Shown piece by piece: positions 5,333-11,046 of a DNA stretch of 64,000 nt. Both the position numbers and the translations under genes were made by a program. Source of the DNA: a virus (Duplodnaviria > Heunggongvirae > Uroviricota > Caudoviricetes); IMG/VR virus record IMGVR_UViG_3300027963_000034, positions 1 through 64,000 of that record. One strand, given 5' to 3'. How positions within the stretch are numbered: the stretch's first letter is position 1; each line of letters opens with the position of its first letter. A model generated the notes under the pieces. That model was not told the origin of the DNA. It saw only the letters and a program-made list of their open reading frames with translations, and ran no database searches.

Positions 5333-5857
5333 TTATCGGTTTAGTTTATTAATACATTCTTCTACTTTATCTCTTAATCTACCACCATATCCAAAATCAC
5401 CATCAACTTGAACATGCCTCCACATTGGAATACGAGGTTTCATCCATTTAAATTCACGAGATAAATTTAAATCATCAATTGCTATCCAATTTGATATCTT
5501 ATTATCTTTAGCCCACTTCACAACTTCTAATGCTCTTTCGTGGTCTATGGATGGTCTACTCATTTTATTCCATAGGTCCTGATGTGTAGTTATATCAATC
5601 AATCGAGCACTTATACCATAATACCTAAATATTCGTTTAAGCTGATTGAAGGTGAAATGTTTTTTCCAATCTGAACTAACTACTAACTCAGCGTTTGTTT
5701 CATCACATATTTTTTGCAATGCCTCACAATCTTCTTTAACCCAAGGGTATGGAATTGTGAAGTCCTCTTGTCCTCCATCAATAGTAACCTTACCATCGTA
5801 CCATGTTGCCCAAACCAATGGACCATCAACATCAATAAAAATAATTTTCTTTCTCAT
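5333..5857 (-). CDS. HAD-superfamily protein (HAD_SAK_2-like)
   Basis: FIDVDGPL, VVSSDWK, WIAIDD. Confidence 0.8.
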   Translation of the reverse strand: MRKKIIFIDVDGPLVWATWYDGKVTIDGGQEDFTIPYPWVKEDCEALQKICDETNAELVVSSDWKKHFTFNQLKRIFRYYGISARLIDITTHQDLWNKMSRPSIDHERALEVVKWAKDNKISNWIAIDDLNLSREFKWMKPRIPMWRHVQVDGDFGYGGRLRDKVEECINKLNR

Positions 5858-5919
5858 AACTTTACATTTGTTTAAATATTGGTAGTATTACTACTGATAT
5901 TATATTGTTTATAAACTAT

Positions 5920-5994
5920 TGGTAGTCCCTAAAGGATTCGAACCTTTACTAAAACGTCCGTAGCGTTTCGTGCTATCCGTTACACCAAAGAACC
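5920..5994 (-). tRNA. tRNA-Arg(ACG)
   Basis: cloverleaf GGTTCTT/AGGGACT-A-CCA, anticodon arm AAACG-CTACGGA-CGTTT, GGTTCGAATCC. Confidence 0.9.
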
Positions 5995-6014
5995 AATTTG
6001 CACATTTGTTTATA

Positions 6015-6104
6015 CTATGCATAGAAATAAAGTAAAGCTCCAGTGATTATTAACACTATAATCAATGTCAAAGTAGATAATTTTTGTCCAATTTTGTACC
6101 ACAT
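6015..6104 (-). CDS. putative small membrane peptide (29 aa)
   Basis: MWYKIGQKLSTLTLIIVLIITGALLYFYA; fills a gap in the gene train; not in ORF track. Confidence 0.35.
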   Translation of the reverse strand: MWYKIGQKLSTLTLIIVLIITGALLYFYA

Positions 6105-6107
6105 ATA

Positions 6108-6191
6108 TTATTTGTTTTTATAATAATTTCTTAATTTTTCACTTAATATACCACCAGTATATGCAAGTATTAAAAATATAACTGTTTTCAT
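6108..6191 (-). CDS. putative small peptide (27 aa)
   Basis: MKTVIFLILAYTGGILSEKLRNYYKNK; tightly packed with neighbours. Confidence 0.35.
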   Translation of the reverse strand: MKTVIFLILAYTGGILSEKLRNYYKNK

Positions 6192-6202
6192 ATTATTTGT
6201 TT

Positions 6203-6424
6203 TTAATCAATAAAGTTTAATTCTACTATATCAAAAGTATCTTCACTGTCTAATTGTTCAATATACTTTTCAGCATCCATTCTGTTTTTAAAGACATAAG
6301 AATTATTAAAATAATATCCTTCATTTATACTACAAGATACTACTACATAACATTTACAATCTTCATTATTGTTTTCAGTTGCAATAAGTGTATAGCTTGG
6401 AAATACATTTAATTCTGTTTTCAT
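6203..6424 (-). CDS. hypothetical protein
   Basis: ORF in gene train. Confidence 0.55.
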   Translation of the reverse strand: MKTELNVFPSYTLIATENNNEDCKCYVVVSCSINEGYYFNNSYVFKNRMDAEKYIEQLDSEDTFDIVELNFID

Positions 6425-6427
6425 AGG

Positions 6428-6652
6428 TTATTTGTTTTTAATTAGTTTAATCAATCTAGGAAGTCTAAATAGCATAATAAGTAACAAAACAGGCCATATA
6501 GTAGCATACATTAAAAAATATAGCTCAAATCCTGCATTTTCAAAACAATATGGGGTAAGTATAACACTTCCATGGTCAATATCTATTTTAAATATTGCCA
6601 TTCCAATTAATAAATAGCATATAAAAAATGATGTAAAAAGTAAATAAATCAT
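6428..6652 (-). CDS. hypothetical membrane protein
   Basis: two hydrophobic segments. Confidence 0.55.
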   Translation of the reverse strand: MIYLLFTSFFICYLLIGMAIFKIDIDHGSVILTPYCFENAGFELYFLMYATIWPVLLLIMLFRLPRLIKLIKNK

Positions 6653-6669
6653 GTTTTAAATTTAATAGG

Positions 6670-6888
6670 TTATTTGTTTTGGTTAAATTCTATTGGTTCA
6701 GCTTTTTTCAAAAATTCATTTACTAACAAATCAAGCCCCATTAATTTTAATGTTTCTTTTATTTGTTGTTCTGTATATATGTTTTCATTATCTGATATTT
6801 CAAATGCAAAAATAGAATTATCATAGTGTCCCCAATCTTTTGATTGTAAATTAATTTTAGCTACTTGTTTTTCTGTATATAGTTTCAT
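6670..6888 (-). CDS. hypothetical protein
   Basis: ORF with internal repeat YTEKQV/YTEQQI. Confidence 0.55.
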   Translation of the reverse strand: MKLYTEKQVAKINLQSKDWGHYDNSIFAFEISDNENIYTEQQIKETLKLMGLDLLVNEFLKKAEPIEFNQNK

Positions 6889-6919
6889 AGGTTAATTAGT
6901 TTTTGTTGTTTGATATACT

Positions 6920-6951
6920 CTAATATACAAAGAATTTTAGAATTTACCAAA
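6920..6951 (-). promoter_or_regulatory. Bacteroidota-type promoter
   Basis: TTTG-N20-TATATTAG. Confidence 0.6.
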
Positions 6952-6991
6952 GTATTTATACTGATTTTTATGAGTATTTATACTGATTTTT
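6951..6991. repeat. 19-bp direct repeat x2 (agtatttatactgattttt), period 22
   Basis: copies at 6951-6969 and 6973-6991, abutting the -33 element. Confidence 0.75.
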
Positions 6992-7029
6992 TACTAATAT
7001 TTGAGTAATTAGAAATATATTTCTAATTT

Positions 7030-7103
7030 TGCACCCCGTCAGAGAATCGAACTCATGTCCATGCGAGGTTTTGGAGACCTGCTGCTTCCTTAAGCTACGA
7101 GAT
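7030..7103 (-). tRNA. tRNA-Trp(CCA), atypical
   Basis: acceptor ATCTCGT/ACGGGGT, anticodon AGGT-CTCCAAA-ACCT, TTCGATT loop; shrunken D-loop and bulged T-stem. Confidence 0.65.
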
Positions 7104-7108
7104 TTTTG

Positions 7109-7179
7109 TTATTCGGGCTGGATTCGAACCAGAACTAATTGTACCAAAAACAATTGTGCTACCGTTACACCACCGAACA
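7109..7179 (-). tRNA. tRNA-Gln(TTG)
   Basis: TGTTCGG/CCGAATA, ATTGT-TTTTGGT-ACAAT, GGTTCGAATCC. Confidence 0.9.
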
Positions 7180-7189
7180 ATTTCCAATT

Positions 7190-7819
7190 TTATAATACTC
7201 TACCCAATCTCCATCCATTAGGAATAATATCTATTTTTTTTATTTTTTTATTTTCAATTTCATTTGTTACCCAACACGTTCCAAATTGGGAATTACCTTC
7301 TCCTTTTTGTTTTAAAGAATTGGCTTTTCCAATTTTTCTTTTTGTTTTTTCAGTATGATTTCTACCTGTCCAATTATCTACATGTTTTAATATACCTGTT
7401 TGCCATAATATTTTATTTTGTTCAGATTTCCATTCTGATTTTTTTTTACGATATTCTGGATTAGCCCACATAAGTTCATTCATTCGTTTTGCTCCTTTTT
7501 TATATCCATCTACTGATATAAACCCACCACATCCACCAAAGACAATATTCATACACATTTCATCTTTCAGTAAATCTTCATTAACTAATTCTTTCTCCCT
7601 TTCAATCAATTTTTCTCTACTATCAAACCATTCAATTATTTCTAATTGAAAGTTTTCTTTACCATACTTTCGTATAGAATATCTTAATCGTTTACCACTT
7701 CCCAAATAACCATCTTTTAAATTACTCGTTGAGTGCATTCCTACATAATATTTACCATTCAACATATTCGTTGTTTTATAAATAAAATGATATTTTTTTA
7801 CTTTGTTTAAGTTTGCCAT
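7190..7819 (-). CDS. GIY-YIG homing endonuclease (Seg-like, NUMOD3)
   Basis: FIYKTTN..GKYYVGMH..YLGSG; HTEKTKRKIG and GEGNSQFG NUMOD3-like tail; free-standing inside the tRNA cluster. Confidence 0.85.
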   Translation of the reverse strand: MANLNKVKKYHFIYKTTNMLNGKYYVGMHSTSNLKDGYLGSGKRLRYSIRKYGKENFQLEIIEWFDSREKLIEREKELVNEDLLKDEMCMNIVFGGCGGFISVDGYKKGAKRMNELMWANPEYRKKKSEWKSEQNKILWQTGILKHVDNWTGRNHTEKTKRKIGKANSLKQKGEGNSQFGTCWVTNEIENKKIKKIDIIPNGWRLGRVL

Positions 7820-7868
7820 AGTTTATATTGTTTACACATATAAATATAACAAAATCAAAAAAGTCTAC

Positions 7869-7943
7869 GGAGCAGATGAGAGGAATCGAACCTCCGTCTC
7901 CTACTTGGAAGGAAGGAGTAATGAGCCATTATACGACATCTGC
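7869..7943 (-). tRNA. tRNA-Gly(TCC)
   Basis: GCAGATG/CATCTGC-T, anticodon loop CTTCCAA, GGTTCGATTCC. Confidence 0.9.
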
Positions 7944-7959
7944 ATATCAAATAAACAAT

Positions 7960-8033
7960 TGAGGGAAGGGAGAATTACGATATCTCGACCTGATGATTAA
8001 CAGTCATCTGCTCTGCCGCTGAGCTACCATCCC
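7960..8033 (-). tRNA. tRNA-Asn(GTT), atypical T-loop/discriminator
   Basis: GATGA-CTGTTAA-TCATC anticodon arm, TAGCTCAGCGGCAGAGC D-arm; T-loop ATCGTAA, U73. Confidence 0.8.
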
Positions 8034-8071
8034 AAAACAAAAAACCCCCAACTAATTAAAGTCAGGGGTTT
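8034..8071 (-). terminator. intrinsic terminator of the putative attenuator, immediately 5' of tRNA-Asn
   Basis: AAACCCCTGACT-TTAATT-AGTTGGGGGTTT followed by TTTGTTTT. Confidence 0.85.
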
Positions 8072-8102
8072 CTAAAATTCTTAATATAAATCTAGCCTAA
8101 CT

Positions 8103-8171
8103 TTACATATCTCTGCTACCCCAAATCTGATTTGGTGTACTACAAAGTGTATGTAATGTTAATGCTTTCAT
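8103..8171 (-). CDS. putative attenuator leader peptide MKALTLHTLCSTPNQIWGSRDM
   Basis: 22-codon ORF just after a TATATTTATA motif; stop-overlapping TAAAGTTAGG is complementary to the terminator 5' arm CCTGACTTTA. Confidence 0.7.
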   Translation of the reverse strand: MKALTLHTLCSTPNQIWGSRDM

Positions 8172-8196
8172 TTGTTATAAATATAATCGAATTAAA

Positions 8197-8268
8197 AAAG
8201 TAATCAATCTTCAAAATACGCCACGTCAAGTCATGCTCCGGTTAATACTAGCCTCGATGAATTACTTT
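8197..8268 (-). ncRNA. small structured RNA of unknown family
   Basis: ends pair (AAAGTAATT.CATC / GAT.TGATTACTTT) around a GC-richer core. Confidence 0.4.
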
Positions 8269-8310
8269 GCTATCATTATTGGAATCGAACCAACATTAAC
8301 CATTATGATA
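8268..8310 (-). ncRNA. tRNA-like minihelix lacking the anticodon arm
   Basis: TATCAT/ATGATA-G-CA acceptor plus GTTGG-TTCGATT-CCAAT T-arm, joined by a short linker. Confidence 0.55.
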
Positions 8311-8319
8311 AAATAAAAT

Positions 8320-9160
8320 AGGGATGAGAATACTCCATATTGTGAACCAGCTTTAGAAAGATTATTAGTTCCTTCCGTTTCCACTACCTTTTGAGTAGTA
8401 CCAATTCAATGTGGATGATTTAAGACTATCAGTCTATAAGTTGCCGATTACTCTCTACTTACTCATTTTCTTCAAGCCTCGCAGCCTGATTAATTCTTGC
8501 GGAATTAGAAACCTTTTGATAGAATCACAGACCTCTTGCGGAGGTATCGTGGCTAAGAACATCTCTTAACTATGTACACACCTTTCATCTGCAACTGGTA
8601 AACACTCATGCTTAATTTTTAATTGAATTTTTGATGTTCAGTATCAAATTGAGTTTTAGTTTATAGAATTATTCAGGTAGTGGTTTACCACTAGCTCCCT
8701 CATCTTTTGAATGAGAGAATACTAAACTACCCGATGCAATATCCCTACTGCGGTCTTTTAAGTCATCTTCAAATATAGGTTTTGGTAAACTCTATATAAG
8801 GATGGTAACAACACCACTTGTACACTATCTTATCTTACGTCCTTTCGGATAGCTTGATGTTAAGATAACTTTTAAACTGAATACCGCAATGATGTAGAGG
8901 GATTAAGTCTACACTTCTTACTGATATTCTATGGGTTATTCTTATTGTTGTTCCCAACTCAGTCGGAGTATCTATACTACCCCAACTATTCAAACTCTTC
9001 CGATATAGTGTTACCCTTTCGTACAAAGCTCAAATAATATCCCACTTGCATACTCAAGTTAATCTCTCCTTACGGGGAGAGTAACCGCAGATGTATCACT
9101 TAATACACCCACTTTATCCTACTTTCGTAGTTTATTTGACGACCATATGCGGCCGTTGTT
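8320..9160 (-). ncRNA. large (~840 nt) structured ncRNA, GOLLD-like
   Basis: no long ORF; many GNRA-capped hairpins (CTAC-GAAA-GTAG, CC-GTAA-GG, TCC-GAAA-GGA, two CCGCAAG loops); own promoters and boxA; size and tRNA-cluster context fit GOLLD; boundaries approximate. Confidence 0.7.
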
Positions 9161-9198
9161 TACTATGTAGAACAAGTCTACTATGTAAAAATTTAATA

Positions 9199-9210
9199 TT
9201 TTAAAGAACT
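9199..9210 (-). promoter_or_regulatory. boxA-like antitermination element
   Basis: AGTTCTTTAAAA between promoter and ncRNA; resembles rrn boxA. Confidence 0.5.
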
Positions 9211-9226
9211 TTCCTTTCGGTTTTAA

Positions 9227-9258
9227 TAAATATACGAATAATTTTTTATTCTGCCAAA
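9227..9258 (-). promoter_or_regulatory. Bacteroidota-type promoter (proximal) for the large ncRNA
   Basis: TTTG-N20-TATATTTA. Confidence 0.65.
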
Positions 9259-9328
9259 TTTATTAAAAGTTTTTTTGTAAATTTGATAACGAGTATCTTT
9301 CATCACCTATTGTTTCTCATTTACTTAT

Positions 9329-9360
9329 GTAATATACGAAACATTTTTTACACTACCAAA
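9329..9360 (-). promoter_or_regulatory. Bacteroidota-type promoter (distal)
   Basis: TTTG-N20-TATATTAC. Confidence 0.6.
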
Positions 9361-9380
9361 TTTATTTTCAAAAAACTTTT

Positions 9381-9466
9381 TAAGATGTTTGGTGTCCGGC
9401 TTTCTTCCCTGTTGAACAGGTCACTCAATCGGTTTTATTATTTGATGGCTTCAACCAATCATCTTA
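9381..9466 (-). ncRNA. 86-nt structured RNA of unknown family
   Basis: closing stem TAAGATG.TTGGT/ACCAA.CATCTTA, internal hairpin CCTG-TTCAA-CAGG; directly 3' of tRNA-Met. Confidence 0.5.
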
Positions 9467-9470
9467 TTTG

Positions 9471-9542
9471 TTGCAGGAGAAGGATTCGAACCTCCGACCT
9501 TGTGGTTATGAGCCACGTGAGCTACCTCTGCTCTATCCTGCG
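9471..9542 (-). tRNA. tRNA-Met(CAT), initiator-like
   Basis: C1:A72 mismatch (CGCAGGA/TCCTGCA-A), GTGG-CTCATAA-CCAC. Confidence 0.9.
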
Positions 9543-9551
9543 ATATTAAAT

Positions 9552-9583
9552 CTAATATACGATAACTTTTTTAAATTACCAAA
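9552..9583 (-). promoter_or_regulatory. Bacteroidota-type promoter for tRNA-Met
   Basis: TTTG-N20-TATATTAG. Confidence 0.65.
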
Positions 9584-9597
9584 TATATTTTTTATTT

Positions 9598-9647
9598 ATT
9601 ATTTAAGTCCGCTAGTTGTGTTAGTAGGATTACCATACTTAAATAAT
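9598..9647 (-). other. hairpin directly 3' of tmRNA
   Basis: ATTATTTAAG ... CTTAAATAAT perfect 10-bp arms. Confidence 0.45.
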
Positions 9648-9650
9648 GTT

Positions 9651-10036
9651 TGTGGAGATGACGGGAATCGAACCCGTGTCTTACAAAGAACTAATAATAC
9701 CAGCATATCACACGTTTATTTAGTTTTTCTTGACTAACAAAATATAAAGTTTGATGTATGTGGGAAACAAACTTTTAAAGAACCTGGTCTCGAAATTATT
9801 TTAAATGGGCTCCGACCTGTGACCCGTTATTTCACATTCTATTTAAAGTTCCACGATGTGTGCGGAAAGGGTTAGGCAGCTACTGCGTAATCCATACCTA
9901 CAAACGCCATTAAGTCGTTGTAAGTCATTGTTGACTTTTCGTCAGTTATTGTTTTGTGCAGGTTTAAAGAGTTACTATCACTTACCTCTACGTGTGGTAC
10001 TACCATTTACATTGCAATCAATTCCATGGCATCCCC
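9651..10036 (-). ncRNA. ssrA: tmRNA
   Basis: 5' GGGGATG / 3' CATCTCC-A with G3:U70; GACACGGGTTCGATTCCCG T-arm; internal tag ORF after AATAACT ending YAVAA-stop. Confidence 0.95.
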
Positions 10037-10088
10037 ATAATTGTATAATATATATAAAGAACTAATCAATACAAATGTTTGAATATGT

Positions 10089-10120
10089 CTAAATTATGAT
10101 AAATTTTTGATATTACCAAA
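10089..10120 (-). promoter_or_regulatory. Bacteroidota-type promoter for tmRNA
   Basis: TTTG-N20-TAATTTAG; boxA-like AGTTCTTTA downstream (~10055-10063). Confidence 0.6.
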
Positions 10121-10150
10121 TATTTTTACTAAAATGTGGATAACTTTCTT

Positions 10151-10200
10151 AAATCATTGAAAATCAACGATTTATAACTCATTGAATATCAATCAGTTAT
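10151..10200. repeat. two abutting palindromes with core ATTGA-N3-TCAA
   Basis: aaatcattga-aaa-tcaacgattt and ataactcattga-ata-tcaatcagttat. Confidence 0.7.
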
Positions 10201-10224
10201 GCCCTTTTATTATAAGTCAATGAC

Positions 10225-11046
10225 TTATATATTAATTTTATCCTTTATGTGATTATAAATACTTTCAGCTATTACATTGTGTCCTAAAATAGTAGCGTGG
10301 TCGTCAAATTTAGATGAATATAAATTACTATCTACTACTAATTCTCTATTATCCATATAATGCTCAACAAAACTATTTTTAGTTATACCATTATAAGTTA
10401 TGGGTATTCTTCTTTCAGCCAACCATTCATTTTTAGATACTAAATCACCATATTTATCATATTTTGAACTAGTCATTTGAGGATGTGCATCTCTCCAATG
10501 TATAATAAAAACAGGAATTCCCATTTCTTCATATGGTTTCAATGATTCTGCTAATCTATGTAATTTATCAATATGCGCTAATTCAACTATTTTCTCAAAA
10601 CTACCATATTCTTCTTCTAAGTCTGCAACTAATTGAACTACATCTTCTTCATCCATTTGATATTGTTGTAATCCAAATTCTATTGTTTTTTCTTTTTTTT
10701 CGGAATATACATAACTCTTACCTCTATCTAAATTTGTTATTTGAAATATGATAGCAGCAATAGTATCTGCCGATTGGCCATCCGTTGTAAAATGTTTATC
10801 GATTTCTCCTAATCCGTAATCTATATCTCCACCATTTCTACCATTATTCAAATCAAATGTACCAAATTTATCAGCAACCAATTTAGAAAAACGATTTTGA
10901 TGTATAAAATCTAATTGTTCGTAAGTGCAATTTTTTATAAAATAATGTTGCGGAATGAAATCAGTAGAAGTCGTTCCTGGATATTCTCTCTCTATACCAG
11001 CACCATATGTATATGAACATCCTGAAAAAATTAATCCTTTTGCCAT
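10225..11046 (-). CDS. SGNH/GDSL-like hydrolase
   Basis: FSGCSYTYG ... DDHATILGH. Confidence 0.6.
   Translation of the reverse strand: MAKGLIFSGCSYTYGAGIEREYPGTTSTDFIPQHYFIKNCTYEQLDFIHQNRFSKLVADKFGTFDLNNGRNGGDIDYGLGEIDKHFTTDGQSADTIAAIIFQITNLDRGKSYVYSEKKEKTIEFGLQQYQMDEEDVVQLVADLEEEYGSFEKIVELAHIDKLHRLAESLKPYEEMGIPVFIIHWRDAHPQMTSSKYDKYGDLVSKNEWLAERRIPITYNGITKNSFVEHYMDNRELVVDSNLYSSKFDDHATILGHNVIAESIYNHIKDKINI

Follow-up and report, generated by a model that had tools for sequence, protein, structure and literature searches.

The window analysed here, a stretch of 64,000 nucleotides from a Caudoviricetes virus (IMG/VR record IMGVR_UViG_3300027963_000034, positions 1 to 64,000), carries a series of RNA genes and elements that run, in minus-strand order, from a tmRNA through tRNA-Met, a GOLLD RNA, a tRNA-like minihelix and a conserved hairpin domain to a short leader open reading frame, a terminator and a set of tRNA genes. 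The features discussed below are as follows.

10036-9652, minus strand: tmRNA
8734-8321, minus strand: GOLLD RNA (RF02032), a full-model Rfam match of 290 bits
8310-8268, minus strand: tRNA-like minihelix, just 3' of GOLLD
8267-8194, minus strand: ultra-conserved hairpin domain ending in a T run
8207-8180, minus strand: promoter-like site TTGATT-16 nt-TATATT, containing a TATATTTATA box (8185-8176)
8171-8103, minus strand: leader ORF of 22 codons plus stop, from the ORF list; codons 2-18 form the proposed sensing window
8166-8094, minus strand: long imperfect hairpin of segments 1:2 (the 'protector'), from the minimum-energy fold
8105-8096, minus strand: candidate antiterminator strand (segment 2), beginning at the stop codon
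8073-8034, minus strand: intrinsic terminator (segments 3:4), hairpin 8073-8040 and T tract to 8034, preceding the first tRNA
8033-7961, minus strand: tRNA-Asn(GTT), the first gene under the proposed control
7943-7869, minus strand: tRNA-Gly(TCC), the second such gene
7848-7839, minus strand: second TATATTTATA box, 19 nt upstream of the GIY-YIG ORF
7819-7190, minus strand: Seg-like GIY-YIG homing endonuclease ORF, between tRNA-Gly and tRNA-Gln
7179-7031, minus strand: tRNA-Gln(TTG) and tRNA-Trp(CCA)
5994-5920, minus strand: tRNA-Arg(ACG), a distal array remnant set apart by small ORFs

The phage encodes a T4-type family B polymerase, with Microcystis phage Mel-JY01 as its best cultured match (48.8%); Mel-JY01 has one tRNA only and no leader cassette, and a DNA search of cultured phages with the window returned matches to tRNAs only. 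Shine-Dalgarno motifs are nearly missing from the gene starts, with only 4 among 68 long ORFs, and positions -14 to -11 show an excess of A. The anchor sequence through which relatives were fetched (see below) was found in none of the bacterial genomes searched and therefore offers no host clue, and the ORFs tried for T9SS-type domains, as a host marker, gave no NCBIfam match.

Upstream of the leader, the tmRNA encodes a tag of 23 residues that ends in Ala-Val-Ala-Ala and differs among relatives. GOLLD, which is known to occur in tRNA clusters (PMC6582537), is linked to tmRNA, tRNA-Met and the leader/tRNA array throughout the about 75 loci compared here, and the leader lies outside the GOLLD model, starting approximately 150 nt downstream of the match. 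The minihelix has a 6-bp acceptor stem and a canonical T arm, lacks an anticodon arm and is kept in all relatives; it may be an RNase P/Z processing signal. The hairpin domain that follows surpasses the tRNAs in conservation, and about 30 nt of it are the same in every anchor-fetched locus. It has no Rfam match, its fold together with the minihelix is not unusually stable (z +0.85), and its role could be to terminate GOLLD or to bind a protein; its 3' strand shares bases with the -35-like hexamer of the leader promoter. Metatranscriptome contigs from lake and estuary (four runs, region 7860-9300) cover GOLLD at ~8350-9180 with very high summed depth; the same assembled contigs, which alone say nothing on expression, transcript ends or read-through, leave the leader (8056-8202) almost uncovered and the terminator unbridged. 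Beside the array are also found a HAD domain of the 'Swiss Army Knife' RNA-repair proteins (PF18143, E 1e-20; 5857-5333, minus strand) and an AAA-type ATPase (5330-4044, minus strand), and the presence of both with the tmRNA and the tRNAs suggests a translation/RNA-repair island.

Within the element itself, the TATATTTATA box is followed after 4 nt by the leader ATG at 8171. Nine exact copies of the box occur in the window, against 2.4 expected, and eight of the nine lie on the gene strand upstream of start codons; the box is not kept in every relative, being absent from the L014 type. A transcript starting 6-8 nt 3' of the second hexamer would be leaderless or nearly so. Sixteen different amino acids occur in the leader (P = 0.019 in comparison with windows from the same phage's proteins), a diversity that on its own is only moderately unusual (P 0.002-0.03), and leader codons 14-18 read Asn-Gln-Ile-Trp-Gly. 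The ORF folds on itself in the protector hairpin, at whose base the antiterminator strand pairs with codons 2-5 (z = -4.5 alone, -6.7 together with the terminator). The same strand, 8105-8096, can pair instead with the terminator 5' arm and loop at 8066-8057, forming 10 of 10 pairs with one G:U (-12.0 kcal/mol), and no other upstream stretch pairs better with that arm (P = 0.037 against dinucleotide shuffles). The terminator is the sole terminator-like site within 5800-10300, and tRNA-Asn starts at 8033, the base right after the T tract.

An earlier note on this DNA had described the box, the 22-codon ORF, the terminator ending at tRNA-Asn, the protector and the antiterminator, had counted 16 amino acids in the 22 codons and had set codons 14-18 beside the next tRNAs, Asn, Gly, Gln and Trp; all of these were recovered. 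It had also pointed to a second box near 7839, which is indeed present, and this box together with the endonuclease unit may drive the downstream tRNAs independently. In relatives without the GIY-YIG endonuclease the array is contiguous.

Each feature of this single window goes only modestly beyond chance, and the strength of the case comes from relatives. Exact-word scans outside the ORF yielded 73 loci from viral and metagenome collections, some contigs being present twice, and a scan with the leader tail yielded 6 more. In each of the 71 anchor-fetched sequences covering it, the leader ORF is unbroken, and so it is in the 6 further loci, where it is again followed by a terminator and a tRNA array, and among the loci fetched the cassette occurs in no context other than before a tRNA array. 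The anchor-fetched sequences comprise 43 distinct leader DNA variants and 28 distinct peptides. Across relatives the leader measures 22 to 53 codons (types of 22, 29-30 and 38-52), the terminator always sits directly before the first tRNA, and the dense array behind it holds 13 to 23 tRNA genes, of which the five tRNAs of the window are, by this sequence comparison, a decayed remnant. The match of the leader to its four neighbouring tRNAs, as first proposed, is present, but it is part of a wider one, to the full ancestral set of 13-23 tRNAs that relatives display.

Two further observations concern the relatives. L027 has lost the leader ORF, carries a weaker terminator right after the conserved domain and has an array down to six tRNAs. 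In relatives, a 207-nt gap between tRNA-Leu and tRNA-Glu (as at L009:1767-1973) holds a conserved element of ~130 nt with a promoter-like box, which is absent from the window; a second leader there, as a source of the Glu codon missing from the main leader, was rejected since the gap contains no ORF/terminator cassette, and the element perhaps acts as a small RNA of its own or as a promoter within the array for the Glu-Thr-Asp-Arg sub-block.

The leader frame is maintained across these loci. The ATG is invariant and every length change is in frame: among the 28 longer variants, the antiterminator lies at one of eight distances from the ATG, between 65 and 134 nt and all of them 2 mod 3, while the non-coding spacer after the stop takes eight lengths that follow no mod-3 rule. 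The distance from antiterminator to stop is fixed, at 14 nt in 28/28 longer variants and as an overlap in the 22-codon type. Over 885 codons, frame 0 contains no stops, as compared with 96 in frame +1 and 80 in frame +2 (~10%). A test of third codon positions for a functional peptide was negative (variability of 0.64, 0.79 and 0.61 bits at the three positions), and the few invariant residues coincide with paired RNA segments. At the level of sequence, selection acts on the leader as an open frame and not as a protein; a frame that is kept while its peptide is free to change fits a regulatory leader rather than a functional micropeptide.

These patterns bear on two rival readings of the locus. 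One is an element that works as RNA only, either as the 3' end or terminator of the GOLLD transcript or as a processing or tRNA-binding element, with an incidental ORF. Its constant position after GOLLD, the tRNA-like minihelix and the ultra-conserved domain would all suit such an element, as would the retention of the terminator behind that domain in L027, where the leader is deleted. However, we consider it very unlikely, given that seven independent length changes are all in frame, that up to 53 codons are free of stops, that no T-box or other Rfam family reaches threshold, and that a Cellulophaga/Maribacter family described below has the same design without GOLLD. The other is an ordinary small unit, a peptide gene or small RNA with a normal terminator, in which the tRNAs would be expressed by leak-through or from upstream transcripts and no switch would operate. 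Small RNAs commonly take the shape of a hairpin with a terminator behind it, the fold here is stable, and some residues are conserved (His-Thr, Trp, Gly and the seven-residue tail of the longer types). Yet the peptide is not under protein-type selection, its conserved residues are those in paired RNA, the conserved second partner of the terminator arm would be left without a role, and leader composition follows the downstream tRNAs in two unrelated families (below), such that this reading appears improbable to us.

The RNA pairings are retained along with the frame. All types follow the same plan, in which a 5' segment of the ORF pairs with the antiterminator and in-frame insertions form their own hairpins inside the helix. 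In ten tested variants the antiterminator, at a homologous site, is the best partner of the terminator 5' arm (-11 to -17 kcal/mol), with P values against shuffles of 0.001-0.04 in nine of the ten and 0.21 in one. Eight core antiterminator pairs are 100% paired in the 28 longer variants, where the only changes are G:U-compatible, one of them altering the peptide from Glu to Gly; between short and long types, coordinated changes occur in the antiterminator and both terminator arms (segments 2, 3 and 4). The earlier note had proposed that relatives be aligned for a conserved short ORF with covarying stems, and here the ORF and the pairing are kept, but the covariation seen amounts to one-sided G:U changes and a single coordinated indel between types, with no robust double compensatory changes.

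To follow how a ribosome might affect these pairings, we used partition-function folding of the transcript up to the terminator loop under a 29-nt ribosome footprint, in five variants of the window's family. For the window's leader, the antiterminator is predicted to be free with the A site at codons 2 to about 18, a range that includes the originally proposed sensing codons 14-18 but extends well upstream of them, and to be blocked with the A site at the last three codons or the stop; in longer types it is blocked over the last ~10 codons. At equilibrium and without a ribosome, the predicted probability of the antiterminator is 0.48 in the window and 0.9-1.0 in the longer types. The protector hairpin invoked in the earlier note is therefore real, but it is not dominant at equilibrium in these models, and since the antiterminator forms without a ribosome, the untranslated state may be ON rather than OFF.

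The folding also speaks to a gate that is activated by translation and involves no codon sensing, in which any ribosome would melt the hairpin, the tRNAs being ON if the leader is translated and OFF if it is not. The long hairpin does sequester part of the antiterminator, and masking any of codons 2-18 frees it, as such a gate would predict. We nevertheless find this account unlikely: in most types the antiterminator already forms at equilibrium without a ribosome, and the account leaves unexplained the fixed distance from antiterminator to stop, the match in composition between leader and array, and the joint changes of Ile, Tyr and Pro/Gln to which we now turn.

Under ribosome-mediated attenuation, the amino acids spelled by the leader should be those of the tRNAs it controls. 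With Met set aside, the leaders contain 14 of 15, 15 of 16, 14 of 14 and 19 of 19 of the array amino acids; with windows of phage proteins or non-coding frames as the background, this coverage has a P value between 5e-5 and 1e-2, depending on the lineage. The correspondence extends to absences. Phe, Val and Tyr are missing from both the 22-codon leader and its array; the two differ in Glu, for which the arrays carry a tRNA but the leader no codon, and in Lys, for which the leader has a codon but the array no tRNA. In other lineages Cys and Phe, Ala and Lys, or Phe and Tyr are missing from the leader and its own array alike, and where a leader of 39-51 codons spells all 20 amino acids, the array behind it has all 20 as well. 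For the nine variable amino acids, presence in leader and array agrees in 298/387 cells, as compared with 245 +/- 7 by permutation and 275 +/- 4.5 by permutation within leader types, both of which ignore shared descent, and in only three of the 387 cells does an array tRNA lack a matching leader codon. The 2x2 leader/array tables, uncorrected for shared descent, read 17/5/2/25 for Tyr and 38/7/1/3 for Ile.

Leader and array often show the gain or loss of Tyr, Ile, Pro/Gln and Cys together. In L001/L005, codon 18 has changed from GGT to TAT and the array is headed by tRNA-Tyr, and other lineages with tRNA-Tyr carry Tyr codons at other positions; in the L014 type and L025 the Pro and Gln codons are gone together with those tRNAs; in L077 and L080 both Ile codons are replaced and the arrays lack tRNA-Ile. 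There are exceptions to this tracking (L064, L032, L004, L044/L057, L047, L008 and L081), and a hand count found roughly as many lagging as matching changes, so that fine-scale tracking, as read from these sequences, is suggestive only.

At the level of codons the match is modest: strict wobble would allow 166/256 leader codons to be read, against an expectation of 147. Codons for Thr, Pro, Ala and Val match well and those for Gly and Ser poorly, the Gly codons GGT/GGC (against anticodon TCC) and the Ser codons being mostly non-cognate. The AGA codon had likewise been called non-cognate, which holds for the ACG tRNA of the window but not for relatives, which carry the cognate tRNA-Arg(TCT). 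On the sequences compared, leader codons thus correspond to the controlled tRNAs at the amino-acid level and only partly at the codon level. As a separate observation, many arrays include a tRNA-Ser with the unusual anticodon ACT (A at position 34; e.g. L002:3312-3397), and the Ser codon of the 22-codon leader is AGT.

A second family of leaders, in cultured phages, was reached from a tRNA-Asn match to Cellulophaga phage phi38:1 and from there to Maribacter phage Panino. Each of these phages has two tRNA blocks, and every block lies behind its own leader and terminator, in cassettes at the following positions.

L074:560-706: phi38:1, first leader cassette
L074:3260-3427: phi38:1, second leader cassette
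L075:1880-2031: Panino, first leader cassette
L075:2908-3038: Panino, second leader cassette

These leaders share no sequence with the window's family and have no GOLLD, yet their design is the same: a promoter box of the TAnnTTTG kind, a mini-ORF of 24-29 codons that spells the amino acids of its block and contains the antiterminator, a terminator, and the tRNAs. The phi38:1 leaders fall inside the annotated ORFs gp066 and gp070, whose starts are further upstream. In both leaders that precede a Pro-Glu-Gln-His-Leu-Arg block, 10 of 13 early codons (codons 2-14) come from that set (P = 2e-4 each), and in the leaders before an Ala/Lys/Ile/Gly/Asp/Thr/Val block, 11/13 and 13/13 early codons come from that set; overall, 10-13 of 13 codons match the leader's own block (P 2e-4 to 7e-3), and the match is lost when leaders and blocks are exchanged (Fisher P = 0.005 and 3e-4). 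Masked folding of three of the four leaders predicts that the antiterminator stays free when a ribosome stands at the matching codons. The window's family differs in having one leader for almost the entire set of amino acids, and in that this leader is always linked to tmRNA, tRNA-Met and GOLLD RNA.

The attenuator that the earlier note had read from one leader is thus supported among relatives by the conserved ORF, the retained antiterminator arrangement and a codon content that follows tRNA content. Taking together the anatomy, the conservation of the frame, the complementarity and the composition match, as they stand in the sequences, we conclude that the element is probably a ribosome-mediated, leader-peptide transcription attenuator placed before a phage tRNA array. 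Beyond this, we infer translation of the leader, the efficiency of termination, the sign of the regulation and a link to host defences that cut tRNAs, and we chart a model as follows. Transcription would start just upstream of the leader ORF, possibly at its AUG, and because the terminator sits directly before the first tRNA, the tRNAs would arise by read-through only. During smooth translation the ribosome would come to cover the antiterminator (at the stop codon here, across the final ~10 codons of longer relatives), the terminator would form and the array would be off. When a matching charged tRNA is scarce, the ribosome would stall at an earlier codon, the antiterminator would be left free to pair first, and RNA polymerase would read into the tRNA genes. 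With the leader acting as a codon panel for the amino acids of the downstream tRNAs, the result would be negative feedback on tRNA supply.

Little has been described, to our knowledge, of how phages control their own tRNA genes, and the regulation of tRNA genes in general is usually placed at the promoter. With somewhat less assurance than for the element itself, we favour the broader view that phages regulate tRNA arrays homeostatically through codon-panel leaders, with the leader of these freshwater T4-like phages testing up to 20 amino acids, co-evolving with its array and belonging to a fixed tmRNA/tRNA-Met/GOLLD/leader/array module that perhaps provides on-demand rescue when the host depletes or cuts tRNAs. 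If this is true, phage tRNA supply is self-adjusting through an attenuator that senses translation, a textbook mechanism extends to a new class of target genes, and phage genomes gain an annotation rule by which leader composition names the tRNAs controlled. The mechanism would also connect tRNA arrays concretely with host defences directed at tRNAs, and it places the enigmatic GOLLD RNA in a conserved, translation-related module. Given the natural variation across about 75 loci and the culturable Cellulophaga/Maribacter phages, the idea is directly testable.

The closest known counterparts are the leader-peptide attenuators of amino-acid operons, among them trpL, hisL, leuL, thrL and the multivalent ilvGMEDA leader of enterobacteria. 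The phage leader resembles them in its short ORF, in the mutually exclusive antiterminator and terminator hairpins that share one strand, in a terminator just before the regulated genes, in codons that name the controlled product and, as proposed here, in a stalled ribosome that favours read-through. It differs in being phage-borne, in having tRNA genes rather than enzymes as targets, in the absence of sequence homology, and in presenting single codons for 13-20 amino acids where amino-acid-operon leaders present a run of one or a few. In most phage variants, moreover, the ORF encloses the antiterminator and continues past it in a fixed tail, unlike the arrangement in those leaders. When 8033-8195 (minus strand) was compared with Rfam, only families of this kind aligned, namely the Bacteroid-trp leader (RF01692), His_leader (RF00514) and the trpB motif (RF04312); membership in any of these was rejected at 20.6-28.8 bits, compared with gathering scores of 49-59, and only the leader/terminator shape is shared.

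T-box riboswitches likewise sense tRNA supply and act by antitermination, as is proposed for the phage leader. Their ligand is uncharged tRNA, bound directly and with no ORF required, and their targets are synthetase or amino-acid genes. A T-box at this locus was rejected, with no match at the gathering threshold or at E <= 5 and with a leader frame that is under selection. A partial parallel comes from mycobacteria, in which leaderless polycysteine short ORFs are reported to act as Cys-responsive attenuators (bioRxiv 10.1101/834739); these share with the phage leader a short ORF, probably at the 5' end of the message, that regulates through ribosome stalling, and differ from it in responding to one amino acid, in controlling biosynthetic or other protein genes, and in not belonging to phages.

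Among phages, the tRNA cluster of T4 carries the GIY-YIG homing endonuclease SegB, according to two papers (PMC2330249, PMC13096335), the later of which links the cluster to escape from a tRNA-cutting defence. T4 and the window have in common a tRNA cluster invaded by a Seg-type GIY-YIG endonuclease, and the abstracts of the two papers mention no leader-peptide attenuator. A full-text literature search found no description of a leader-peptide attenuator for tRNA genes. The kind of mechanism, ribosome-mediated attenuation, is a known one, and what is new is its use, with tRNA genes as the targets.
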